DNA of 54,300 bases from Lama guanicoe (lineage: Eukaryota), in NCBI GenBank assembly GCA_013239625.1, contig MU053513.1:3460927-3515226 (forward strand). The letters run 5' to 3'. The translations under genes and the position numbers were made by a program. Below are positions 804 to 52,415 of this stretch, one piece after another. The first letter of the stretch is position 1, and each line of letters starts with the position of its first letter. The notes beneath the pieces are model-generated. The model was not told where the DNA came from, did not search any database, and saw nothing but the letters and a program-made list of their open reading frames with translations.

Positions 804-1650
804 TTAGAGTAGACCTTTCAATATTTCTTTTAGCATCAGTTTAGTGTTGCTAAATTCTCTAAGTTTTTGCTTCTCTGTGAAGTTCTTTCTCTCTCTTCTT
901 CTAAATGATAGCCTTGCTGGATTAAAGTATCCTAGATTGCAGCTTTTTCTCATTCAGGACTTTGAATATATCTTGCCACTCCCTTCTGTCCTGCAGTGTT
1001 TTGTGTACAGAAATCAGCTGAAAGCCTTATGGGGGTTCTCTTGTGACTATTTTTCTCTTGGTTCCTTTAGAATCATTTCTTTATCCTTTACCCTATGTAT
1101 TGGTGTGGGTCTGTTTGAGTTCTTCTTGTTCGGGACCCTCTGTGCTTCCTGTACTTGGATATCTGATTCCTTCTTTAGGTTTGGGAAGTTTTCAGTCATG
1201 ATTTCTTCAAATACCTTTTCAATACCCTTTGCTCTTTCTTCTCCTTCGGGACATTTCTATTATGTGTAGGTTGGCACATTTTATATTATCCCATAGATCC
1301 CTTATATTGTTTTCTCTCAGCTGTTCTGATTGGGTGACTTCTGTTGTCCCGTCTTCTAAGTCACTTATTTGTTCCTCTGCATTATCTAGCCTGCTTTTTA
1401 CAGCCTTTAGCTCAGCTCTTATCTCAGCAAATGAGTTTTCCAGTTTTAATTGGCTCCTCTTTACAGTTTCAATTTCCTTTTTGACATATTCTCTGTCTCT
1501 AAACACAATCTTTTTTAGTTCCTTCAGTACTTTGATCACTCCTTTTTTGAAATCATGATCTAGTAGACTATCAAGGTCTATTTCATTGATTGTTTTTTCA
1601 GGGGATTTCTTTTGTTCTTTTAATTAGGAGTGGTTCCTCTGCTTCTTCAT
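804..1650 (-). pseudogene. L1 ORF1 (disrupted)
   Basis: Starts MKKQRNHS* at 1650, includes the coiled-coil ORF 1219..1539 (SRLDNAEEQISDLED...IRDLWDNIK) and ends LKEILKGLL* at 804. Has stops, frameshifts and several small deletions. Confidence 0.88.
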
Positions 1651-1764
1651 TTTACTTATATCTCTCTGGCACTATGGATTATGGAGTTTCAGTTATCTAC
1701 TGTGATCCTGAAGAGGTTTGTTTGTTTGTTTATCTATCTAAAGCTGATGTGGAAATAAAACTAA

Positions 1765-1975
1765 AAAAAATTTAAAAGAAGAAAAAATATTTGAAAACTG
1801 TAATCAATAACAAGAATAAAATGAAGAGAAATAAAAATCAAGTTGAGACAATTTTTTAAAAATTTTAAAGAAGAAAAAGATTTGAAAACAGAATATAACC
1901 AATAACAGAAGAACAAAACAAAGAAATAAAAATCAAATTGAGACCAATTTAAAAAAATCAATAAAAATTTTAAAA
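1765..1975. repeat. Two degenerate ~90-95 bp A-rich tandem units in the distal L1 5'UTR
   Basis: The motif aaaagaagaaaaa.atttgaaaac...caataaca...agaaataaaaatcaa.ttgagac occurs twice. Confidence 0.7.
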
Positions 1976-2139
1976 GGGATAAAAAATTAAAAAATTAAAA
2001 AAAGGAAAAGAAAGGAAGAAACAGGTGGACGTGTTCCCGTAGAGACTGTGCTCTTGATAATTTTGTTGAGAGGTCCTTTTTAAGTATGGGTGGTTGCCTA
2101 GTCTTCCTTTCATGCCTTTTGTCTGTTATCCCTTTGGCT

Positions 2140-3200
2140 AGGGGTGTGGCCAGCGTTGTGGTGGGCAGAGCCTGCGTTGACTATTGAGCAGGGCCTCCTT
2201 TTTGTTCTGTGATGTCGCCACTCCTGCCCTCGCCCTTCTGTGCAAACTCCGCTGGCTGGTTCCAGAGGCCCTCAGGTCGCGCCCCTGGTCTGTGCAGCTC
2301 CCAGCGCTGGTAGGCGGGCAGGCTGCGCCCCTCCCAGTGCCGCATTCCGCGCGGCGCTCGTGCACGGTGGGCGGGCGGGTCGCGGCCACTCTGGACTCCT
2401 GTACTCCGGAGCCGCGCTCATACCTGGTAGGTGGCGGGTCACACCCCCTGCCAACCCATGTCCCAGTGCCTCGCTTGTGCGTGGTAGGTGGCGGGTCACT
2501 TCCCCATTCAGTGCCTCTCCCCACACCGCCGTGGAGGGTGCGTGCGTCGTATGCGGGCTCTGAGAAAACGGCTGCCGCAGCCCTCAGCCCTGCTGTGTGC
2601 CGGAACTCTGCTCCTTGTGGGTTTGTCTGAGAGGCGAGTTCACAGAGCCACCGGGGCAGAACATTCCCCTCTGCCTGGGGCTGTCAACAAATCTCAGTCC
2701 TGCCTGTGAGGTAGAGGAGCCCTTAGGTGCGTATTCAGGTTTCCACCCCGCCTCCGCCTGGAGCAAAGAATATGGTGGCTGTGGCTGCGCCCCGCCTCTC
2801 TTCTCCCAGGAGTGCGCCAGTAATGGCGCTGGGGGTCTGTGGAGACAAAGGCCACGGTCCCCTCCCCCAAGGGCACACCAGCAGTGTTGCTTTTTTTTTT
2901 TTTCCCTTGTATTTTATGGGGGACCCAGGTGGTTCTGCTCTGTATACCTTCCCAGCCACGGCACACAGCACACTGCAGTCCCCCGAGATTGCCTCTTTAC
3001 AGCCGGCCTTTGTCCTCCGCCCAGCTTGGGGAGCTTGTCCCGTCCCACCCCTGCTGGTTCGTGTCTAGGGCTGGGGGTTGCGGGGACCCTTTGTGTCCAC
3101 TTATCTTAGTTCTGTCCGTCAAGGGCTGTTCTGTACATGTCCGAGCCTGGGGGGTTCCCCCTCCATCCCGCTCACCTCTCTGTGGGAGATGGGGAGACCC
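2140..3200 (-). promoter_or_regulatory. CpG-island-like L1 5'UTR internal promoter with short degenerate monomers
   Basis: High GC with many CpGs (e.g. cgcattccgcgcggcgctcg). The motif ggt(a/g)gg(c/t)gg(g)c recurs about every 50-60 bp between 2305 and 2500. Confidence 0.65.
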
Positions 3201-3437
3201 AGTGATTGAGCACTGCTCCTCCTTTGCCGCTCCCTCCCTGTAGGACTAGTCCCACACTATTTTCCTTTTTCTTCTTTCTTTTTTCCTTTTCTCCTACCAG
3301 ACTTGTGGTGGATTTTGTCTTTTGAAGAAGGTGATGTTCTGTCAAAGTTCAGCAGGTGTTCTGATTGGCTGTGTGGGTCCCTGGATGTCACTCTTGGTGT
3401 ATTCGTGGGACAGGGTGAGCTATGAGCTCCTTCTACT

Positions 3438-3448
3438 CCGCCATCTTG
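3438..3448 (-). promoter_or_regulatory. YY1-type motif at the L1 5' end
   Basis: CAAGATGGCGG on the minus strand, about 12 nt from the element start. Confidence 0.7.
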
Positions 3449-4983
3449 GCCCTTCCTCTCTAGATTTGTTTTTACTCTGCCTTCCCCAAATCCTATCTAT
3501 TGAGAAAACTATTTTCATCTTCAAAAGTATTCCTAGGTCTTAACCCACTATATATGACTCTTGACAGGAAGTTTAATTACTAGGAAAGGTATCTCCTGGA
3601 TGCATTGGGTCCATGAAAAAAGGGTATCTATTTAGAATGCATGATGAAGAGGAATATATTAGAGTAGGGAAGTGAGTGAAAGAGATTCTTTTAAAAGTTG
3701 TGCTTAGGGACCTAGATTTTATTCTTATTCTCTGACTTAAATTTATGTATTCTGGCCAAATCCAGCTGATTATTTAAGGCAATTCCCTTCATTCTAATTT
3801 GGCTTCAGTAGTCATCTCAATGTAACATTTTGCTGATTACAAGCAACTCTTTTTCCTGGTACTAATGGTCATAATGCAGAGTCCATTTCATTTCCTCACT
3901 GAAACCATTGACTTCAGGAAATTAAACTGTGGATTTTAATTCTTTGGTTTAGAATAGGCATTTGAATCCCAAAGATCCGAGTTTTTAATCAATATTACTG
4001 GTATCAATGAGAACATTTATAATATGATGTACCATTTTAGCTCAAATGGTAGATTTTGCATGTTGATATTTTTATATTTTAAATGCAGAAATTTGGCAAC
4101 ATAGATGATTTTTTTTTCTTGGAAACCCAAAAGTGCTATATAAAAACATGTATTATGGTCCAGTATACCTGCATTATTGGTTAGGTAGAAGAATAAGGCA
4201 TTTGGTAAATAAAATATTTGGGCTAATTGAAGATTATTATGTATGCATTATAGATTAATAGCTGACTTGGCAAAGATTATAATACAATAAAATACCTACA
4301 GCACTAAAACTGCAAAATGATCAGAGCTTTGTAACAGTGGTCAGAATAATCACTGTGAGCATTTGCTATCATTGTGCCATAGATGTAGAGAGGTGCTAAT
4401 TAAAGAGCTCTAGTTATGTTGGATTCCAGAGAGCCACCTTAGTACTGTTCACATTTATGATCCTGCTATGTGTGGAATTTAAAAAGTGGTAAAGAGAATT
4501 ATGGAGAGAAATAATGGTACGCTGTATTTTTTCTTTGCCATTTTACTAATGTATTACAGAGCTGGAGTAAAATTCTTTTAATTAATTGTTTAAACTCATT
4601 TGGCTTATAACCGTTAGGAAATCATAGCCAGTGAATAGAGAAATATATACAAATTCTGCATTATTGGGGACTTTTATAATTCTACTTACTTAAAATGCAC
4701 ATAGGGAAAATGTATTTAGAGACTGCTTAAAGTGTATAAAAATATGTATTTAATGGCTACTAAAAACTAGTTTTTAACAGATTCTCCTTGTAGAGAATGT
4801 CTTTGGAGCTTTATGATCATGAGTTTTTAATGTTAAATTAATTGCACGTTGAAGACAAAAAAGCAAAACATTAATAAATGAACTATGTTGCAACTAATAT
4901 AATCTGTGATCAAAGAATATATTGAGAAGATTTATAAAAAACTAGATGTGATTACATAAACTAATACCCTAAATAAACAGGAG

Positions 4984-21824: not shown

Positions 21825-23769
21825 TTCTTTTGTTTGTTTGTTTGTTTTTAATGAGAACTTCTCTGAGATTGTGTGGAGGTGAGGTTTAACACTGGTCCTG
21901 GATGTGCCACTCAATCATTTAGGTGTCATGCACTTTACATAAATTAGTTCATTTAATTTTCATAAGATCCCAGTCCAATTCCCACCAACTCCTCCAATTC
22001 CTCACTCCCTAGAATATTTCCTCAACATCCCCCTGCTGTTTCAGTATATTCATATTCTGCCCATCACTTAACACCCTATCTCAGTTCTGCTTTCTTTTTC
22101 CCAACCGTTCATCATGATTTCCTATTACACTTGTTTGAGCCAATTACTACTGATTAAGAACTCTTTATTTACTACAATTTCTAATACTCTGAACAGTTCA
22201 GTTTGACACTTTAAGAACACTTATTTTTTCATGGGTTTTTGCTTGTCAGACTTTTCTTATCAATAGCTAATAGGCTTCTTGTGAGCAAATCAATGTTTGC
22301 ACATCTACCACGGTGCCTGAAATGTGGCAGATGGTTGATTAGCCCTTAGTGTTTATACACTGACTCCCTGATACCTTTGGGAATCTTGAGTCTCTGTCAT
22401 TGAGATTATGTGAATTTTGTTTCATAATAATCTATTTTGTGTTTTGTTGGTTTGGGTAGGGGGTGGCATGGAATGTGTGGCTGAGATCACTGAACTTTCC
22501 TTCCCTTTGCAGGAATTTGATTCCACATGAATGTGTTTTTCTCAGATCAGACAGTGTTGGTTTTATGACAGTGACTCAGTATTAAGGTCTCAGGGCCTAC
22601 ATCAAAATTTGTGTTACATTTTATCAAGTGATAAAAATTTTAGATAGTATGTTTCTAAAACCTCTCAGGTGTAAACTCTACAGTGGTCTTGCTATTGCGT
22701 GAACATTTTACTCAACTATCTTGCTGTTACTTCTAAAGAAGTAATAAAGATGAAAAATGTGAAGGAAACAGAAATTAGACTGGAAGGATATTTATTGTGC
22801 CAATTGTATATACATCTGTACCATAGCCTTTTTCAAATTGTCATCATTAGACTGGCTTTTTTTGGAGGGCAGGGACTATGCTTTATTTTGCTTCTGAACC
22901 TAGCACAATGCATGGCTCATAGATTCTCAATAAATGGCTGCTGAATTTACGTTTTTGGAGTGGGCTAATATATAATGAAGCTTTAATAATTTGGACTGAA
23001 AAAGTAGATTCTTAATGTTTGGCTCACTGACCAAAATTTATATATTAATAGATTCATTAATGACAATTAACACTCATATCATTTTTAATACTTGAAAAAA
23101 TGCTTTTCACTTCTACTGAATTCTTGAGCAAGTGGATGAGATCCAGTCTAACTGACCAGGACACTGGCACACACGATTTACATAATGTGTATGGGCTTGA
23201 TCACAGAGCTGGAAATTATGACTGGAGTGTGGCTTGGATTTCAGTCATTGTAGAAACATTTAAGCCTTCTTTTTCTTTCCTTGTCTTAAAAATTTATTTT
23301 CCTAGAGATGATATTCTGCCTCTGTCTCTTCGGTCTCTTCTTCACACTCAGATGAAACTTGTAGAATGTGAAAATTGCCCTGACAGAACACCAGAGAACT
23401 TTCTAGATATGAGATTCAGGAACTGGTGCTACATCACGGGGTAACACGAGAGGTAAAGCTATTGATTAGATAGAAAGTATGTGGAGTTAAACGATAGGTC
23501 ACCGTTTCCCACTCCTCGCGTCCCTGTACTCCTTCCACTTTAAGGAAAAACAGAAAAGCTTTTTCCTTAATTACACTTGCTCTTATCAAAGAAATAAATG
23601 TGTCACTTAACAAACACCTACGTGCTCCCTGTAGCATTCATATTCTGTCAACTCCGTGTTCCTCAGGATGACACTTTCCCCCCTTGCTTGGCATACTAAC
23701 ATGGCTTTTGGAAGAATTTATGGAAAACTCTATTTATATAAGATCATAGTTAGCAACAAGCTTGGTAAA

Positions 23770-24400: not shown

Positions 24401-24534
24401 CATATTCCAACTTGAACATTTTCTTCATTATATTTAGTGTTAAAAATTTACGTCGTAACATGGATCATATGCTACTCAGTGCAACTATAACATGATCTCT
24501 CTCTCTCATTCCCCAAGATTCTTTTTGGCATATT

Positions 24535-25062
24535 AAAGGACAGTTTTGTTGAGTTTTATTGGCTTCAGTGAACTGTATGTATTTAAAATGATCAGTCTGG
24601 TAACTTTTGACATACGTAGTACCTGTGGAACCGATATAAGACACAGAAGTAGAAGAGAATAGAGCGTAATTAATTCTGCCTGGAGGAAGAGGGCTCAGAA
24701 AAACATTCAGACCATCACGGTAATGAAAATATCCGTCGCCCGCAATGACTTCTTCATGTCCCTTTGTCCTCCCTCCGGTCCATCACTTCCCACCCTCCTC
24801 TCCCCACAGACCACCACCTATTTTCAGTTTTTAGAGCTTCATATGAATGGGACCAGACAGTGTGTCTTCTTTTTTTTGAGGCGGAATGAGTCTAGCTTCT
24901 TTCACTCAACATAATGATTTAGAGATTCATCCATGTTTTTGCATGTTTGACCACATTTCTTTTTATTGTTGAAATAGTATTTTTTTATGGTATACATATA
25001 CAAACATTTGTTTTCACCTATTGATGAGGAATTTTGAGTATTTTCAATTATTTTAAATTAAC
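24535..25062 (-). mobile_element. Old L1 3' fragment carrying a ~70-bp internal insertion
   Basis: cagttttgttgag...ttttgacatacgta...ttttagagcttcatatgaatggga...ttctttcactcaacataatgatttagagattcatccatg. Confidence 0.8.
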
Positions 25063-29487: not shown

Positions 29488-30880
29488 GTGTCTCAAGGTT
29501 AATGTGTCCAAAGTCTAGCCCTTCACTTCTTGAAACACATCCCTCCTCCAGATGTGAAGACTTTGGGTATTAGATCCCTTCTTTCATCTGTCCCTCCCTC
29601 CCTCCGTTCTTCCTTCTCTCTCTCTTCTCTCCTTCCTTTCTTCCCTGCTTTCTTCCCTCCGCTCTCAGTTCCTGATGTCAGAAAATCCAGTAAGTGTTAC
29701 CTCCAAAATACACAGTGGATCTTTGCCCTTTCCTCCTCCTCTGCAGTCACCACAGTCCAGGTGTGGACTACCTCCTTCACTCACTAGCCCCCCTCCCCTA
29801 CAAAGCAGTCTGCTTCCAAAGAGTGCTCTTTTGCTTTATTGAGGTAAAATTCATGTAATGTAAAATTACTCATTTTAATCATTTAAAAGGTGTACAATTG
29901 AGTGGCTTTCAGTACATTCACAATGTTTTGCAACCATTGCAACTCTGATTCTAGGACATTTTCACAAAGAAACCCTCATCTGTTAAGCAGCCGCTTCCCG
30001 TGCTTCGCCCCCAGCCCCTGGAAACACTGATCTACTTTCTATCTTCATGAATTTGCCTATTCCGCACGTTTCATATTAACGTTACAACACATTTGTGGTC
30101 TCTTGTGTCTGACTTCTTTCATGAGAAGTAATGTTTTCGAGGTTCATCCGTGATGGAGCATGTGTCAGGACCGCATTCCTTTTTATGGCTGAATATTATT
30201 TTACTGTATGGCTGACATTTTGTTCATCTGTTCATTGGTTGATAGACATTTGGGTGGTTTTCACTTTTTGGCCTTTATGAATAATGCTTCTGTGAACATT
30301 TGTATAACATGTTTTTGTTTTAACACCTGTTTTCAACTCACTAGAGTAATCTTTTAAAAATGAAAATCATGTGTTTCCCCCATTTAAAAGCCTTCAATGG
30401 CTTTTCATTACAATTATATTATAATCCAAATTCATTCGTTTGGCCTGCAAGGATTTGCATAATCTGCTTTTCCTTTCTCATTGAAACGTCTTTCCTCTTC
30501 CCTCAATATATTCCAACCACAGTTGCCTCTGTTTAACTTCCTCCAACCTCCCAAGCCTTTTTAGAGTATTCATGCCTGAAATGCTCCTCCCAGAGCTTCA
30601 CATGGCGAGTTCATTTTCATCCTTCAAATCTCCATGGTTAATGTGACCTTCCCTAAGAGGCTTTCCCTGACTAAACTCCGTTATTCCTGTTTCCTTCCTG
30701 ATAATTGTCTCACTTTGTAATACATAGTTGTTTCTATTGTCTGTCTCCCTCACAAGAACATAAGTTCCTTAAGGCCATGAATTAAGGTACACTCTTCATC
30801 ATTACTTATCTGCACTTGTGCTTAGCACAAGACATTGAAGTGGTACTCCTTAAGTGTTTATTGAGTAAATGAATAAATGA
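29488..30880 (+). mobile_element. L2 3' fragment interrupted by an L1
   Basis: tgtctcaaggttaatgtgtccaaa...acctccaaaatac...[L1]...agagtaatctttt...tttaaaagccttcaatggctt...aagtgtttattgagtaaatgaataaatga. Confidence 0.8.
29830..30340 (-). mobile_element. L1MB-type 3' fragment
   Basis: ttgctttattgaggtaaaattcatg...tgtacaattgagtggctttcagtacattcacaatg...cccagcccctggaaacactgatctactttct. Confidence 0.9.
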
Positions 30881-35065: not shown

Positions 35066-38000
35066 TGTGTTAAATAATCATTACACGTACACAACCCCTC
35101 TCCCTAAAATTAGAACAACAGTAGAGCTAAACTCAAAAAAATTATGGCATCTACCACAATCAGTTTACTAGTCATTGTGGCAGCTAAACATAAAAACAGA
35201 AAAGTGAATGCTGAGAAAGGGTGCATATGCGTGGAGGATAATAGAGACGTAAACTGGTTAGGGCTGCACTTTACAGGTGGATGAGAAGTGTGAGAGTAGA
35301 TGGTAAAAATAACGGAGGTAGATTTAGGAGACTGTGGCACTGAGGATTTTATTTTAGTAGTAAAGAAGAGAACAAAGTCTTCTCAAAAGAGAGTAGATAC
35401 CTGCAGTATTTTATGTTAGAAGAGAATGAGGCTAATTCTCTGGGTGTCTAGGGAGCATAAATCATAGTAGGTTATGGGAGTATTCCCCACAGGTTGGTTT
35501 TTAATAAGTTAAAATCATTTGCTTTAGATAACCACCTTCATACTTATTTTTATCACGGACCCCTTTCTAAGCAACTCAACTTTGCGATGGTTCAGGTCTT
35601 CTGAAGAAACAGCCTCTAATCTTAATGAGTGACCAAGGTAATCACCTACTTGAATTAAGTCCCTCTTGATCTAGACCTTCGGGTAAAACATTATTTGCTC
35701 CATATTAAATAAGGACATATAGAAAAATGAGTACACACAATGGTGTCACTAGGAGCTGCACCTGAAAACCTGTGGCATACTGGGCATTGTGGTCCTCAGT
35801 CTTTTCTCTCTCAAGGCCTCTGAGATGTATCACACCCTCCCTTCTATGCCCGGGGGCTCCCTATAGCAGTGATTCTGGGGGAGGTATGGTGAGCAGGGGC
35901 CATGGGGTTTGTAACAGTGCATCCCCATCACACTCAAGTCAATTCTGAAACTGCTCCCTTTCTCCTCCCTTGTCCCTTCTACCTTAAGAGTTATTGCTAG
36001 AACCAGGCTCCCTGACATTTATTTTAAAAGATTATTATTTTCAGCCTCCTTTCTTATGTCTCATTGGGAAGCCAGAGCTTGCTCCTTAGAGAAGCAACAT
36101 GGTATCAGAAGTCATTCCTTGGAGAGAGACCATGAGGCTACACTTTAAATTTTGACCCTAATTCCTACTATTTCTGTCTCTATAATTAGGTTTTAAGCCC
36201 CTGGCAGGGAAAAGACCAGGTTTTATTCCACCCTGTCCTTTTTTTTTCAAAAAAAATTTTTAACCTTCTTCAGGATTAGCTTTTAACATTCAAAAAGGTA
36301 GTTACTTAGTAAATGTTTATTAAAAATGAATACTCTTCCTTAAGGGCAACTTTTATTCCTTCATGAAGGCACATCTATTCTCTGCTATGAAAAGAAAAAA
36401 AAGGAAAATGTTGCATAAGTACAAATTAAAATGGAAGATATAGAGTGTGTAGCTGAAAGCTAAGCAGCGGCTTTGATCTTTGGCTGAGAATTTTAAAACG
36501 ATTAAAAGGGTTATTAAAAATAAGATCTGAAGGTCTAATGAGACTTAAAAAAGGGCCCAGGACTTTGTCTAAGTCTGCATAGGCTCCAGAAGGCTGCAAG
36601 GGCCTTGTAGTGCGTGGGCCATCACTGACGGGGACCCTGGCTCCCGTGGATGGGTTACGGGGGGTCCTGTGTCCAGAGCCTCTGCCTTCTGTGTGTGGAC
36701 TGCAAGTGTTCCTCAAGAATGAAAACTAGGGAATGTCAGATTTCAGGACGTTTTTCTGTTACGCAGCTATACAGTGTCATTAACATTCTCATGCCTGGGG
36801 AAGATGAGCTTTTTAGGCCTGTTTGCTTCTCTGTGAAGGAGAGTAAAAATAATCACCTCATAGACCCAAGAAAGGATTAAACTGGCACGGTGCTGGTGAC
36901 GTAGTATGCATATGTTGAATAAACAGTAGTTTTTATTTTATTCGCAAATTGAAATTTAGAAGTGTGTTACAAATGGTTAAGTGGGTTTGAGGTAGAATGA
37001 CTAGAGCCGTATTACAGCTGAGCTTCGTTGTAGTTTAGACTGGCTTATGTGAGCGGAGGTCAGGACATTGCTATCGTGGCTAACAGCTCTTAAAGGGAAA
37101 ACAGTTTCTCAAAACCATGTGACTGGCATCCTCCTGGAGTTTTGGAACTATGATGCCCTTGTAGGTTGAGTGTTACCCAGCTCTTTTCCCTGTTACTCAT
37201 TTAACATTTATCTCTCTTTTCTGCATAATGGCTATTAGGTAACCCAGAAGAGACATCCCAGCTTCCACCATCAGAAAGAAACCATTTCTTTCACATAATA
37301 TCCACTTTTTCTAACTTGCATTAATTGATCCTTCCGTTGGCCTTCATTTAAGGCCAAGTAGCTTTGCAGGCCTTTGACTTATAAATGCCAAAGAGAAAGT
37401 CATTCATTAATTTAAAGTCAGACTCCTTGGATTTGAGTCATAACTCACTTTATAAGGATGCTTTAAAATTTTCAACCAATTTTTTTTTGCAATTTTTACA
37501 TGTGCAATAAATTAAAAGCTATGATGGTTAAAAATCTGTCACAAAAATTGTAGAAAATAACATAGATCTTGGCAAAAACTTGTCCATTCATAGGACCAGA
37601 TTTGTATACTTGCCAGGGTAGAACATAGATGCTGTGGCACCACCAGTGCCACCACTATCAATAGAAAATATTCAGTAAACATGAAATTACCTGTGAAGTT
37701 GTGCTAGGTGTCATAATATGAGAGTCACATCGAGAATAGGGACCAGGAATTACTAATAGACAATTGACAGATGGACCAAATACAAACAATAAGCAATTAT
37801 CTATATGTAGGCACTGTGGTTTTCATTATATATAAGTAAGTTACACATTAAATTTTGGCATGTGGAAAAGGTTAATTATGTGACTGAAGCAGAGATTAGA
37901 AATACAGTTTAGGACTTTCACGTCTTGTCAGATTGATGCATAATCATAATAGTGTGACTATGGTCTGTTGAGTTTGTCAGGGCATAAAGCATTTCCGTTT

Positions 38001-39016: not shown

Positions 39017-39122
39017 AGCCTCACTCCTGGAGCACATAAAACAACACTGGAATATTACAAAGAAGACTGGCATAGCCCCTGTGCAAAGATGACTCACAAA
39101 TTTGTAAAGTTGCCATATTTTT
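39017..39122 (+). pseudogene. Diverged full-length U6 snRNA retropseudogene
   Basis: Colinear with U6 (AGCACATA...TGGAA...ACAaAGAAGAcTgGCATaGCCCCTGtGCAAaGATGAC...CAAATTtGTaAAG..CCATATTTTT). About 28 differences in 107 nt by hand alignment; the ACAGAGA box is mutated. Confidence 0.9.
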
Positions 39123-43725: not shown

Positions 43726-43822
43726 CTACAAGTCTGGAAGGCAAAAGTCCTCGCCAAGGCTGTCAGAGGGCAGAGAACTGATAGAATTTTGGAGCTGGAG
43801 GGAAGTGACTTACTGTCTAATA

Positions 43823-44160
43823 CAGTGGTTTTCAAAGGGGGTCAGAGTCACCTGGAGAGCTGGTTAGAACCTAGATTTTTGGACCCTGCCCCGCATTTTT
43901 GATCCAGTAAGTCTGGGGTGAGGCCTGGGCACTTGCATTCTAACAAGCGTGCAGCTGGTGCCGGTGTTGATGGTTTGGGAATCATCGGTTAGTCCGGTGG
44001 TTCTCAAACTTGGCTGTACGTTAGCTTCTTCTGGGGAGCTTTTACGACCTACCCGTGCCTTCATGCAGGAGATAATGAGAGCCTGCATTTAACTGGTCTG
44101 GGCTGAGACTCTGATTGTATTAAGGACTACAGTGCGCACAGAGGATTAAATACCCCAGCC
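43823..44160. mobile_element. Two adjacent MER5-family hAT MITEs nested in a MIR fragment (~43775-44215)
   Basis: cagtggttttcaaa...gagtcacctggagagctggttagaa...cagtaagtctggggtgaggcctg...ttgcattctaacaag, then cggtggttctcaaacttggctgtacgttag. Confidence 0.8.
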
Positions 44161-44499
44161 TAGGTTATCCTTCATTTTATGGATGAAGAAACTGAAGTCT
44201 GAAGAAATAACTTCCCTTCTTGTTCTGGCTCCTGGTGTTCTGTCCATTGTTTCTTACTCTCCCACTTGGCTCCTGATTGTAAAAGGTCAGGGGATGTGTT
44301 AATCTGTTGACACACAGTGAAAGTTTAATAAATCTCTACTGTTAAGTGACTCATGTAGCAGGGAGTAGGCAACCACTGAAAGGTTTTGACCAGCGAAGTG
44401 ACACAGTGAAAGTAGTATTTTAAGAGGACTCATTATTAGAAAGGGGTAGGATAAAGAGATTAGAGATGTGAAGATCTTTCTGTTGCGATGTTCCCGTAG

Positions 44500-45050: not shown

Positions 45051-46844
45051 TTCCAGACTTAGAAGACATTCTAGGCCCTGGTCATCTCACACTTCCTAAA
45101 TTTAATGTCTGTTACTTATCTGTCCAAGTGCCCAACCTTTCTATCACTGGTCCAGGTATGTGACTTGACTTGTGACTCACTTTCATTGGCTGAACCCTAT
45201 TTGGACAGAGTCAGGATAGGTCTGTGGGTTCTGTCAGTGCTGGTCTGGGAAAAGCATTCACGAGCTAGTTGCTGGTTATGGTGTCTGATGGAAATGGGGA
45301 GAAGATACTTGAAAATGTTAGGGTCACTGGTAATTTCCCAAAGTTTAATTTGTGGTATGAGTAAAATCAGGAGATGTGGCTGAGAGCGATTACTGGGTCA
45401 ACAAAGAAGAAACATGGAAGCTTGACAATTATGGGGCACAAAGTCTGCCAGAAAATTTATAGTCAAAAAGAAAAGGAAGCAAATGAACAGATACATTTGG
45501 GAACTAGGGTTGTTTAAAGGCAGTACCAAATGGCTTTTCTGTAGATGATTTCTTCTGATGCCCTTTTTGAAAATTCATGGCCCCTTTTAACTCTGACAGG
45601 TTGATTATCCCACATTCTATAACTAAGAACACATTTGATTTTATACTCTCCAATAAAATACCGATGTTTTGGACAGCACTCTGTTTTACCTTCATGTATC
45701 CTTGACCTGAAGTTTCACTTTTTATTTTTTCAATGGCAGAATACTTTCTACTCTTAGCCCTAAGGGGAAGGAAGATACTTTCTCAATGATATCCTTACTT
45801 TGGGCAGTAAGTTACATCATTTTTCATTTTTTTCTTCTCTGTTAATAAACCGGTGGAAAGTATTTTTGATTTGGACCCATCCATTCAAATGCTCAAAGGC
45901 TTTATTTTTTACTCACTTTCCCTGACATTTTAAAAATGTCATTTCTTGAAAAATCAGGAAAGTACTGTTATTTCTATTTATGACAGCAGTATAACTTTTC
46001 TTAGGAATTTTTCTCTTGAAAAATTTGATGTTGCTTTAATGGGTAAACATGGATATGTAAATGTTTCAAATCTGATTCAATTCCATTTCTCTTTGTTGAA
46101 CCCTTAGTTGACAGAATTTCTTGCACTTCCAGGAGAAATTTTGAAGAGAAGGGAAAAAAATTTTTACAAATCAAGCAGCATATATTGAATTAAGTAGTCT
46201 TTGATCTCGTAAACTTCTAGAGGAGCTTAGTATCGTTCCAATCCCCTTTTCTGGGTCTCTAAAATCTGTAGTTCTCAGAACACTAACGCTCGAATAATGA
46301 CCCAGAGATCTTAAAAGCTACTAAGCCATCCCAGAGAAATTCAGTTTTTCTTATTTTACTAGACTTACTAAGGCAGAAAAGTAGACTGATTCATTACAGA
46401 ATACACAGGGGTTGGCAGGCCCTAGAAGGAGGACCAAGGCGCTTGATGTGCCTGTTGTCAGGCTAACAATGGTGGGAGATGCAGTTTACTAGAAACGCCC
46501 CGACTCTTCAGCCGAGTGAGACGCGGGAGATTGTGGTAGCTGAGTGACTACCTCTGAACAGGCACAGAGGACTGGGTGGGTGCCATGGGAGCACCAGCTG
46601 CTGGATTTTGGACAGCATGGGTAACTTGTGCCAACCACACACCCTTACAGTCACAGGCAAGAGATAACAGAGGCAGCAATTGTCCCACATGCCGAAGGTA
46701 TCTTACTAAAGAGCCCTACTTAACATACATGCTGAAGGCTGCCAGCATTTATTCTATAAATATTTTCAACAAGGATTAGAATTGGCAATTCAAATTAAGC
46801 CTTGGGTTACTAGACAATAACATCACCTAAATACATGTGCGACA

Positions 46845-47485
46845 TCCATCCAATAATGTGTTTGTCAAATACCAGCTTCTGGGCTGGGTGCTGGAATACC
46901 AAGGTGAAATAAGATAAACGTTGTCACTGCCGTCATATTGCTTGCTGACCGCGGTGGGTGCATATAAGTAAACAAGATAATATACCGTAGTATATTATGT
47001 GCTATGATAGAAGAAATACAGTGAACCATGGTAACGTACAGAAGCTGGGTACTTGACTTTTACTGAAGGATTCAGATAAGAAGAGGCATCTACATGAAGA
47101 GTTAACAGGCACTGGACTGATCAAGAGGAGCTGGGACCAGAAAGGGCATTCTGGCTAAGGGGACAAGTCATATACGGAAGTCTGGAGAAAGATCATAAAG
47201 AATGTTCTGTTTGGAGCATACAGATCTTGGGAAGAAGTGGTTAGAAATGAGGCTAGACGTGTAAACAGAGCCTAGACATGTGGGATTTTTCTAAACATTT
47301 GGCTTTAGATGGAAGGGAGAACCGCTGAAAAGTTTTCCAGCAGAAAACTGAGTAGGTATGCATTTTAAGATAATTCTGGCAGCATTCTGGAGAACGAGTT
47401 GGAGGGAGATAATAGTGGAGACAACAAGACCACTGGGGACACTGTTGCAGAAGTTTACATAAGGGAAGATGGTAGCCTGTATTGG
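46845..47485 (-). mobile_element. L2 3' fragment
   Basis: catccatccaataatgtgtttg...gggtgctggaataccaaggtgaaataaga...tgcattttaagataattctggcagc. Confidence 0.8.
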
Positions 47486-47989: not shown

Positions 47990-48480
47990 AAAAAGTAATT
48001 AAGGGCACAAAAGGCACGTAATACATGTCAAGTTCAAAAGAGAAGCTGCAAAATTACACAGTGAAGTTCAGAGTTTAAAAATGACAGAAAGAGCAAAGGT
48101 GGAAAATGACAAAAACATTTCCTGTAAGATTGACTAAAAGGGCTGCAAGAATATAGCGATCGTACGCGGGACACGAAAGGCCAGTGAGCAGCCCGGAGAG
48201 GTGTCTAATGGAGAGCCAGGGTGGGCCATTGATTGAGGGGGCCTCGCAGACATTGAAAAAGTAAAATTAAATGAATTCTTTGCCCCAGTGCTCTCAAAAA
48301 GCACAGTCTTGCTAAAAAGAGAAACTGATTTAAAATGAAAGAAGTAAAATTGTCCCTTGGAAATGTTACCAATCAATGGGTGGTAAAGAAATTTGAATTC
48401 TCCTGTAAATCTAGGTATGCTTTTTTCCAGGATTAGTGGTATCCAAGGCCAGTGATTCATTCTTAGGTTTAGAAACCCTT
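47990..48480 (+). mobile_element. Possible ancient CR1/L3 ORF2 fragment
   Basis: aaagtaaaattaaatgaattctttgccccagtgctc translates KVKLNEFFAPVL, resembling the CR1 KAEVLNxFFASVF motif. Very degenerate. Confidence 0.4.
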
Positions 48481-48902
48481 TTGAAAAAGTATTATGTTAC
48501 CTCTGTGTGTTTTGTTCCCAAGTCACCCAACGCAGGCCATTTTTAATGCTTCCTTGGCTTTCTGTCTGGTGTCAGAGTGTGACAGACGTCTTCCCTTCTC
48601 AGGGAAAGCCAGGGAGAACATCAGGGGACACGCAGAAGTCCCAGCAAGAAGGGCTTCCCAACCTAGTCAGCTTTTTGTTTTTTGAAGGAAATATGCTTAT
48701 TGCTGTGTAGAGATTTGGAGGAAGGGGTACTGCTCACTCTGGAAATCCTTTGCCTTAATTGGTTTGGGCTCTTATAACAAAACAAAACAAGAACAAAAAA
48801 AGCCTCCTTGAAGAACAAACTATTTCTCACAATTCTGGCGGCTGGGAAGTTCGAGATTTGCCAGCAGACTGTTTCCTGACTTGTAGATAGCTGCCTTCTA
48901 AC

Positions 48903-48939
<37 letters not shown>

Positions 48940-50312
48940 AAAACAGACACACACCCAACATGTGGGCTCCACTCTTAACATAATTACCTGTCAAAGTCTC
49001 CATCTCCAAATATCCTCACACTGGGGATTAGACTTTTCACGTGAATTTTGAAGGATACAAACATACAGTCCATAGCGTCTTAAGAGATACAAATTTTCCA
49101 AAAAGACAGGAGTTGTTTTTTCTTAATTGCACGATAAAGGCAGGATCAGAAGAATGGGTATGCCTGATGTAAAAATAGAGGGATTTCCTATTACCCTCTC
49201 AGACAGAAGGTGCTCAAATATACTGGCTTCCACTTAGAGAACGGTTCTCATGATCATCTGCTAACGAATCTGCAGGGGTTCGAGGGGAGCCAGATGAAAG
49301 GGCAATGAGTGCCTTATCATCTTTCTACTTTCAAAAGCTGCTCCCTCTGCTTTCCCTCAACGTTGATGACTCGTGCTTTGAAGAAGCGAACAGGAGACAG
49401 ACTTCAGGTCATCGACCAATGGAAGAAGTACAATTTAAGTCACTGAAAGAAATGCTAATCCTTGTTTTTATCTTCTGTCTTGAAGGCTGCTCAGAATAAG
49501 ACAGCCATCTTCAATTTCTGAAAGTGGAACACTGCATATGCAGTTTAATTCCAGGTTGTTGGGGGGCACGTTCTAAGACATAAACATCGGACTAGAGAGT
49601 GGAGAGAGGACCAGACTGGAGAGAGTGTCTTTCGTACATTCTTGTGCTACATACAGTTGGTCCTCCAGTGCTGCCAGTGAATGCCTGTGTGATGACGAGG
49701 TGGTGGGAGGAATCTGGCGGGTATCCTAACACTGGGGAAGGACGTTTGGGTCAAGGTGAGCAGTTAAGCTCAATACAGGAATCTCAGGAAACATGACTGG
49801 ACTAAAACCAGTTTTATTTGGGTTTTTCTCATTCTACATAGTGGACATTGCTGGTTGTGGAGGCTATTGAAAGGAAAAGCAGAGAGGCACTTTTCCTCCA
49901 GAAGATATGAGGCCTGGAGAGAAAAAAGAGAGCTGGATCTGAAATACAGCGAGTTATCATCTATTCTGAACTGATTCTTAACTTTAAAGTATACTACATT
50001 ATGCTTTGTAGTCCTCTATGGGTTTTTAAAGTGTTTTCGCAAATGTTAGCTCTTTGACCACCTTAAGAGGCAAGTCAGGCAGACATCCATGTTTCAGGAG
50101 AAGAAATGAAACATGGGGAAGTTGTATTTTTTTCCAGCTTTATAGAGTTAGGAGTGACAGAGGATCCTTGATGCTGATACATCAGTGTTGTCTGCACTCC
50201 AGTGCTTATGTAGTTCCAGAGATCACACAATTTCTCTGTTCTTAGACTTTTCATTGTTTTGGGGGAATTTTAAAGTAGCCCATCTGTGAATGGTATTCAA
50301 AAGAATGACTAT
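48214..50312 (+). repeat. Tandem duplication, copy 1 (2099 bp)
   Basis: agccagggtgggcc...aagaatgactat is repeated head-to-tail; ORFs recur at an offset of 2103. Confidence 0.97.
48751..49077 (-). mobile_element. MaLR LTR (MLT1A-like) with internal (TG)n(AG)n, in copy 1
   Basis: atttctcacaattctggcggctgggaagttcgagat...taattacctgtcaaag...catctccaaata...tgaattttgaaggatacaaacatacagtccatagc. Confidence 0.85.
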
Positions 50313-51005
50313 AGCCAGGGTGGGCCATTGATTGAGGGGGCCTCGCAGACATTGATTGAAAAAGTAAAATTAAATGAATTCTTTGCCCCAGTGCTCTCGA
50401 AAAGCACAGTCTTGCTAAAAAGAGAAACTGATTTAAAATGAAAGAAGTAAAATTGTCCCTTGGAAATGTTACCAATCAATGGGTGGTAAAGAAATTTGAA
50501 TTCTCCTGTAAATCTAGGTATGCTTTTTTCCAGGATTAGTGGTATCCAAGGCCAGTGATTCATTCTTAGGTTTAGAAACCCTTTTGAAAAAGTATTATGT
50601 TACCTCTGTGTGTTTTGTTCCCAAGTCACCCAACGCAGGCCATTTTTAATGCTTCCTTGGCTTTCTGTCTGGTGTCAGAGTGTGACAGACGTCTTCCCTT
50701 CTCAGGGAAAGCCAGGGAGAACATCAGGGGACACGCAGAAGTCCCAGCAAGAAGGGCTTCCCAACCTAGTCAGCTTTTTGTTTTTTGAAGGAAATATGCT
50801 TATTGCTGTGTAGAGATTTGGAGGAAGGGGTACTGCTCACTCTGGAAATCCTTTGCCTTAATTGGTTTGGGCTCTTATAACAAAACAAAACAAGAACAAA
50901 AAAAGCCTCCTTGAAGAACAAACTATTTCTCACAATTCTGGCGGCTGGGAAGTTCGAGATTTGCCAGCAGACTGTTTCCTGACTTGTAGATAGCTGCCTT
51001 CTAAC

Positions 51006-51042
<37 letters not shown>

Positions 51043-52415
51043 AAAACAGACACACATCCAACATGTGGGCTCCACTCTTAACATAATTACCTGTCAAAGT
51101 CTCCATCTCCAAATATCCTCACACTGGGGATTAGACTTTTCACGTGAATTTTGAAGGATACAAACATACAGTCCATAGCGTCTTAAGAGATACAAATTTT
51201 CCAAAAAGACAGGAGTTGTTTTTTCTTAATTGCATGATAAAGGCAGGATCAGAAGAATGGGTATGCCTGATGTAAAAATAGAGGGATTTCCTATTACCCT
51301 CTCAGACAGAAGGTGCTCAAATATACTGGCTTCTACTTAGAAAATGGTTCTCATAATCATCTGCTAATGAATCTGCAGGGGTTAGAGGGGAGCCAAATGA
51401 AAGGGCAATGAGTGCCTTTCCATCTTTCTACTTTCAAAAGCTGCTCCCTCTGCTTTCCCTCAACGTTGATGACTCGTGCTTTGAAGAAGCGAACAGGAGA
51501 CAGACTTCAGGTCACCGACAAATGAAAGAAGTACAATTTAAGTCACTGAAAGAAATGTTAATCCTTGTTTTTATCTTCTGTCTTGAAGGCTGCTCAGAAT
51601 AAGACAGCCATCTTCAATTTCTGAAAGTGGAACACTGCATATGCAGTTTAATTCCAGGTTGTTGGGGGGCACGTTCTAAGACATAAACATCGGACTAGAG
51701 AGTGGAGAGAGGACCAGACTGGAGAGAGTGTCTTTCGTACATTCTTGTGCTACATACAGTTGGTCCTCCAGTGCTGCCAGTGAATGCCTGTGTGATGACG
51801 AGGTGGTGGGAGGAATCTGGCGGGTATCCTAACACTGGGGAAGGACGTTTGGGTCAAGGTGAGCAGTTAAGCTCAATACAGGAATCTCAGGAAACATGAC
51901 TGGACTAAAACCAGTTTTATTTGGGTTTTTCTCATTCTACATAGTGGACATTGCTGGTTGTGGAGGCTATTGAAAGGAAAAGCAGAGAGGCACTTTTCCT
52001 CCAGAAGATATGAGGCCTGGAGAGAAAAAAGAGAGCTGGATCTGAAATACAGCAAGTTATCATCTATTCTGAACTGATTCTTAACTTTAAAGTATACTAC
52101 ATTATGCTTTGTAGTCCTCTATGGGTTTTTAAAGTGTTTTCGCAAATGTTAGCTCTTTGACCACCTTAAGAGGCAAGTCAGGCAGACATCCATGTTTCAG
52201 GAGAAGAAATGAAACATGGGGAAGTTGTATTTTTTTCCAGCTTTATAGAGTTAGGAGTGACAGAGGATCCTTGATGCTGATACATCAGTGTTGTCTGCAC
52301 TCCAGTGCTTATGTAGTTCCAGAGATCACACAATTTCTCTGTTCTTAGACTTTTCATTGTTTTGGGGGAATTTTAAAGTAGCCCATCTGTGAATGGTATT
52401 CAAAAGAATGACTAT
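50313..52415 (+). repeat. Tandem duplication, copy 2 (2103 bp)
   Basis: About 99% identical to copy 1: 17 substitutions and one 4-bp TTGA indel by hand comparison. Confidence 0.97.
50854..51180 (-). mobile_element. MaLR LTR (MLT1A-like), duplicated in copy 2
   Basis: Same sequence as 48751..49077. Confidence 0.85.

Follow-up and report, generated by a model that had tools for sequence, protein, structure and literature searches.

Two adjacent, near-identical copies of a 2.1-kb unit in the Lama guanicoe assembly GCA_013239625.1 (contig MU053513.1) differ mostly within a single 225-bp patch, where copy 1 tends to carry G or C and copy 2 tends to carry A or T. The patch lies in a stretch of 54,300 nucleotides that was analyzed as a whole (the window), and its clustered, GC-skewed divergence is confirmed as a genuine pattern in the assembled sequence. 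The explanation that we prefer, tentatively and at a little short of an even chance, invokes GC-biased gene conversion (gBGC) at a recombination hotspot on the lineage of copy 1, and in copy 2 a tract derived from a haplotype that had long been separate.

The duplicated unit and its divergent patch

The window is AT-rich, mammalian-type DNA containing 0 N, and its comparison with itself by BLAST returned a single near-identical pair, with 99.0% identity, 17 mismatches and one gap (Table 1). Divergence between the copies is 5.8% inside the patch and 0.21% elsewhere (4/1874; 95% interval, 0.06 to 0.55%), which amounts to a 27-fold rate ratio; at the age of the flanks, ~0.6 differences would be expected in the patch. 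At least 13 of the 17 substitutions fell within 225 bp in 0 of 200,000 random placements. No indels are present inside the patch, and transitions make up 14 of the 17 substitutions when both copies are compared. The skew toward G/C in copy 1 over copy 2 is 13:3 overall (two-sided binomial P = 0.021) and a modest 10:2 inside the patch (P = 0.039). An earlier, sequence-only reading of this DNA had listed the 13 patch positions, and the alignment of the copies bears them all out as genuine differences at an offset of 2103, along with the total of 17 substitutions. Its other counts hold as well: the split of sites (G/C in copy 1 at 13 of 17, in copy 2 at 3, and A/T at 1), a divergence of about 6% in 225 bp against four substitutions in the rest of the unit, and a microsatellite of the same length in both copies. 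Several of the copy-1 states had been described as CpGs, and five were counted from their contexts. What that reading had missed are the 4-bp indel past the junction and the arrangement of the patch as two sub-clusters.

Table 1 Features of the tandem pair and its left border, in window positions
Feature	Position	Strand	Details
CpG-rich stretch	48000..48213		7 CpGs, observed/expected 0.77, a level found in ~1% of upstream windows; abuts the left breakpoint exactly
Copy 1, tandem duplication	48214..50312	+	2099 bp; apparently non-coding; self-BLAST
Span of four flank substitutions	48296..49951		48296, 48954, 49132, 49951; CpG transitions 3/4
(TG)n(AG)n microsatellite	48903..48939	+	Equal length in both copies, no alignment gap there
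Divergent patch, copy-1 GC-rich version	49231..49455		13 substitutions, G/C at 10, 7 CpGs
Sub-cluster A	49231..49317		9 substitutions: a run of 7 sites at which copy 1 has G/C, followed by the adjacent pair 49316-49317
Identical 94 bases inside the patch	49318..49411		Gap test P = 0.024
Sub-cluster B	49412..49455		4 substitutions; copy 1 has G/C at 3
Junction	50312..50313		Blunt, 0 bp microhomology either side, no N gap; known from the assembly alone
4-bp slippage-type indel	50351..50354	+	Extra in copy 2, 38 bp past the junction
Copy 2, tandem duplication	50313..52415	+	2103 bp; known from the assembled sequence alone
Divergent patch, copy-2 AT-rich version	51334..51558		G/C at 2/13 sites, 4 CpGs

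The substitutions outside the patch are of a different kind. CpG transitions account for three of the four flank changes and for only 2 of the 13 in the patch (Fisher P = 0.053), so that the flanks resemble a pair of ordinary alleles. The final 361 bp up to the breakpoint are identical between the copies, and the 600 end bases (300 bp per end) hold 2 differences, where a duplication of the same age as the patch should show ~35 (P = 6e-13). Since crossovers with single-copy alleles would refresh the outer ends and spare those beside the junction, it is the ends that should date the duplication. It looks young: the clock used in PMC7331169 (7e-9 per generation, 5 years) puts it at no more than ~0.8 My.

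The CpG-rich stretch at the left breakpoint may represent a regulatory element or the footprint of a second hotspot; nothing like it borders the right breakpoint (1 CpG). Further short CpG-rich stretches occur in this CpG-depleted DNA at 23301-23700, 24526-24925, 29876-30275, 36850-37100, 43801-44200 and 46301-47125, so the CpG content of the patch is unusual (~1% of windows) and not unique. An old LTR-like remnant, which we take to be MLT1-like, ends at 48950-49080, ~150 bp left of the patch. An imperfect hairpin within 49285-49330 (around 49292-49322), with three variant sites in or beside its arms, is nominally more stable in copy 1 (-7.4 kcal/mol) than in copy 2 (-4.9 kcal/mol) and was given no weight in the interpretation. 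The Rfam scan of the window gave no match within copy 1. A protein search with the 81-residue open frame over the patch gave no candidate homologue, and a 24-base motif common to both copies had 0 matches in metagenome contigs, both results being uninformative on the outgroup allele.

Elsewhere in the window, a minus-strand frame at 1219-1623 lies beside a stretch of 60% GC (region 1219-3450); presumably the frame resembles LINE-1 ORF1, and the GC-rich stretch would then be the 5' end of the element. A 95-bp A-rich unit occurs twice at 1766-1950, the two units being 82% alike. The Rfam scan found a full-length, diverged U6 snRNA match at 39018-39122 (59 bits), probably a retrocopy. At 23352-23440, 89 bp between AG and GT look exon-like by eye, with no host gene identified.

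Occurrence of the copy-1 patch and direction of change

Sequencing runs were searched with positions 48950-50312, that is, copy 1 with its patch, as a query of 131 words. The 24 runs comprised 19 holders in eight studies, four near-empty runs and one that was not indexed. Run X1 (share 1.00), the possible source, was set aside, leaving 18 holders to be counted, while X20-X23 (0.00; 2-68 million letters) and X24, the run not indexed, carry no information. The shares of the query words were 0.95-0.97 in seven of these holders, intermediate in two (0.93 in X9 and 0.92 in X10) and 0.82-0.90 in the other nine. The seven high-share runs carry the organism labels A, B, C and D and come from studies P1 and P2, one of which contributed four of them and the other, to which the possible source belongs, three. 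A sample lacking the 13 patch alleles would be expected to give a share of 0.86 (0.80-0.91), and a share of at least 0.945 would then have a probability of 0.0004, random sampling of words being assumed; loss of sub-cluster B alone would give 0.946. The high shares exceed that expectation, and the copy-1 patch, or at least its sub-cluster A, is therefore a genuine shared allele; it is not an error, nor did it originate once the duplication was in place. The low shares agree with the 0.81 that copy-2 alleles should give, but ordinary divergence of 0.3-0.7% gives 0.91-0.80, and contig building collapses variants (Logan preprint). Because either fits equally well, we did not count the low shares as evidence for copy 2.

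The direction of change was addressed through the substitution spectrum, using a context model in which CpG mutability is 11.2-fold and that of GC bases 1.5-fold (bioRxiv 10.1101/015560). The transition/transversion splits of the model are our approximations. Log-likelihoods were -77.7 for gBGC on the copy-1 lineage with B = 5, -79.9 for all changes on copy 2, -81.0 for a symmetric process and -85.7 for all changes on copy 1 without gBGC; the fit deteriorates at high B (-83.6 for B = 100). Read as AT-to-GC changes on copy 1, the 10 skewed sites comprise eight transitions and two transversions, near the 86:22 of the model. Read as decay of copy 2, they include CpG transitions at 2 of 10 where 62% are expected (P = 0.009, with CpG mutability at 11-fold). 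If CpG mutability is lowered to 5-fold, the margin drops to 0.6 units and the CpG test to P = 0.157, and at 1-fold the corresponding values are 1.0 unit and P = 0.93. Thus the modeled spectrum mildly favors AT-to-GC fixation on the copy-1 lineage, by ~2 log-likelihood units and at the price of one extra parameter. This is a lean and not a result, and it falls short of proof of the direction.

The rates involved say more about age. To produce the patch within the age of the flanks, gBGC would need a strength of B ~119 (47-438), compared with ~36 if 2.5 My were available and 15 if 6 My were, while estimates for human hotspots reach ~15-18 (PMC4510005); it is the version in which patch and flanks share one age, and that version only, that falls outside the known strengths. 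For a burst on copy 2, one lineage would have to mutate at a 38- to 52-fold rate. Most probably, therefore, the patch has been separate for longer than its flanks. The sequence-only reading had offered gBGC at a hotspot and, separately, conversion from a diverged or introgressed haplotype. The spectrum mildly supports the former, which is too weak on its own within the flank age and so needs the longer separate history that the latter would supply.

Proposed explanation and its rivals

In the scenario that we prefer, a young, blunt 2.1-kb tandem duplication would have set two allele-grade haplotypes side by side. The copy-1 lineage would have fixed ~10 AT-to-GC changes at the center of a recombination hotspot through gBGC, and its GC-rich version would now be common. 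Copy 2 would have received, from a haplotype of another lineage without those fixations, a tract bounded between 225 and 818 bp, which falls within the 100-1000 bp reported for non-crossover tracts (PMC4404656). This length suits the diverged or introgressed donor that had been put forward, whereas a search within the window found no such donor. Hybridization is documented among South American camelids (PMC7331169), but the flanks diverge by less than the 0.7% that Lama and Vicugna should show (P = 0.003), which is too close for a whole inter-genus haplotype; a donor of that kind could have supplied a short tract only. Several points count against this scenario. By parsimony, the sharing of the copy-1 patch under four labels is just as good support for copy 1 being ancestral, the likelihood margin is small, the skew over the whole patch stays below 80%, and the B of ~36 required even over 2.5 My of isolation remains above the human values. 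We also consider, as improbable, a hotspot-centered form of the duplication, in which one meiotic break fell at the patch, both resected ends were over-extended by ~1 kb, and the ends were joined bluntly. Copy 2 would on this view either have frozen the center as it was before gBGC or have taken ~12 strand-symmetric changes at once.

The same sharing leads to the chief rival, which we judge rather unlikely: copy 1 is ancestral and copy 2 was hit by a local burst of mostly GC-to-AT changes, arising for example from error-prone processing at the center of a meiotic break, possibly in the repair that made the duplication. Copy-1 alleles found under four organism labels agree with it, and so does the derived appearance of copy 2 at the flank CpG sites 49132 and 49951. 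At human hotspots, mutations peak within ~100 bp of the center without strand asymmetry, and resection covers 1-2 kb on each side (PMC7615360), a pattern matched by the 225-bp width of the patch, its mixed strands and the distances of 1129 and 969 bp that separate its center from the breakpoints. This centering has P = 0.085, however, and was spotted post hoc. The burst also demands the raised rate on one lineage given above, and leaves CpG transitions too scarce if the CpGs were methylated. The 2.1-kb junction has 0 bp of microhomology on both sides, whereas microhomology (median 15 bp) is reported in 94% of hotspot duplications below 2 kb (PMC7615360). A local template switch was rejected, with no source within 1 kb, where the longest exact direct or inverted match is at most 10 bp, equal to the background maximum. 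Changes written into copy 2 might instead have come by ectopic conversion from a ~6%-diverged paralog located elsewhere, the skew then reflecting the history of the paralog or chance. The tract size fits this as well, the skew stands at P ~0.04, and 5.8% corresponds to ~20 My on the PMC7331169 clock, too deep for ordinary alleles; yet the window contains no such paralog and, among the three main models, the symmetric one has the poorest fit, and we hold this route to be quite unlikely.

The pattern may also be an artefact of the assembly, the sequence in which copy 2 and the junction are observed. Homologous chromosomes may have been placed head to tail, in which case the patch is real and purely allelic, or the copy-2 patch may be a consensus error. 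As an explanation of the patch an artefact of either kind is unlikely, and its head-to-tail form overlaps our preferred scenario. Taken separately, a false duplication is a distinct though doubtful possibility, and a wrong copy-2 patch sequence is highly improbable. The blunt junction and the heterozygosity-level differences along the unit point to an artefact, and false heterotype duplications are common among assembly errors (PMC9516828). Such duplications typically show gaps, according to the same source, and here no N stands between the copies, although a gap may have been closed or removed. The predominance of transitions and the lack of any indel in the patch or the microsatellite are unlike read errors. 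An old duplication homogenized by inter-copy conversion everywhere except at the patch, another proposal of the sequence-only reading, would account for the many runs holding the copy-1 patch and, if contig building collapses variants, for the spread of shares between 0.82 and 0.97. Its ends should, as we infer, be the hardest part to homogenize, and they are the part that is nearly free of differences; we consider it very unlikely and no longer entertain it as the origin of the pattern. Deamination of single-stranded DNA in copy 2 by an APOBEC-type enzyme (kataegis) fares worst and is barely credible. Kataegis of this type is characterized by strand-coordinated mutations of C and by enrichment of the TpC context. 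Eight of the 13 changes are indeed C>T or G>A, and all four G>A lie in TpC context on the minus strand. The four C>T, none of them in TpC, are interleaved with the four G>A on one strand, the overall TpC count (4/8) does not differ from the 0.40 background (P = 0.40), and 5 of the 13 changes are of other types. With neither strand coordination nor TpC enrichment found, the deamination suggested earlier was rejected in its enzymatic form.

Significance and comparison with known systems

Clustered divergence with gBGC is a known process and a known kind of feature. In the likely case, the present locus is another clustered GC-skewed patch in non-coding mammalian DNA and a candidate hotspot marker in camelids. 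It also carries a warning, since adjacent near-identical copies may be two haplotypes and not a clean internal control; the duplicate had been proposed as such a control, and it is a weaker one than proposed because the copies differ at the allele level along their length. If the duplication is real, break-centered and polarized, gBGC or break-center mutagenesis could be measured against its own ancestral copy, and under the hotspot-centered reading, if true, the pair would preserve on a single chromosome the states of a hotspot before and after. A literature search found nothing on the present locus or on gBGC in camelids, and no camelid hotspot map.

The closest likeness is to biased clustered substitutions and gBGC tracts (PMC9413910, PMC4510005), which share with the patch its density, its strong GC-versus-AT skew and its location in non-coding DNA. 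The rule of Dreszer et al. asks for at least 5 substitutions within 300 bp, at least 80% of them weak-to-strong (PMC9413910). The patch has 13 in 225 bp, and 170 placements of a 300-bp window reach the 80% share if copy 1 is derived, the patch as a whole standing at 10/13 (77%). Biased clustered substitutions are polarized between species, whereas our contrast is between two adjacent, unpolarized copies, and the patch resembles that class as a candidate member. As a gBGC tract it would imply a strength beyond that estimated in humans, except if the patch exceeds its flanks in age. Human-lineage HAQERs and their CpG beacons (PMC12687773) are likewise short, fast-diverged and non-coding, with a gain of CpGs on the GC-rich version. 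By definition they belong to the human lineage, and the beacon threshold of 17 CpG gains per kb exceeds the 13 per kb seen here (7 versus 4 CpGs).

Other parallels concern how the two copies came to lie together. False heterotype duplications, as described in PMC9516828, similarly consist of adjacent near-identical copies that differ at the allele level, with the distinction that no assembly gap separates the present ones. The patch has the length of a non-crossover tract; the tracts reported in PMC4404656 mostly span one marker, in contrast to the 13 here, for which the hypothetical donor would be ~6% diverged. End joining at hotspots can give tandem duplications (PMC13532658). Hotspot mutagenesis, finally, shows a central strand-symmetric zone of ~200 bp like that of the patch, together with an enrichment of insertions at hotspots (PMC7615360); the events known from that source are pooled and rare, whereas here 13 changes lie on one molecule.
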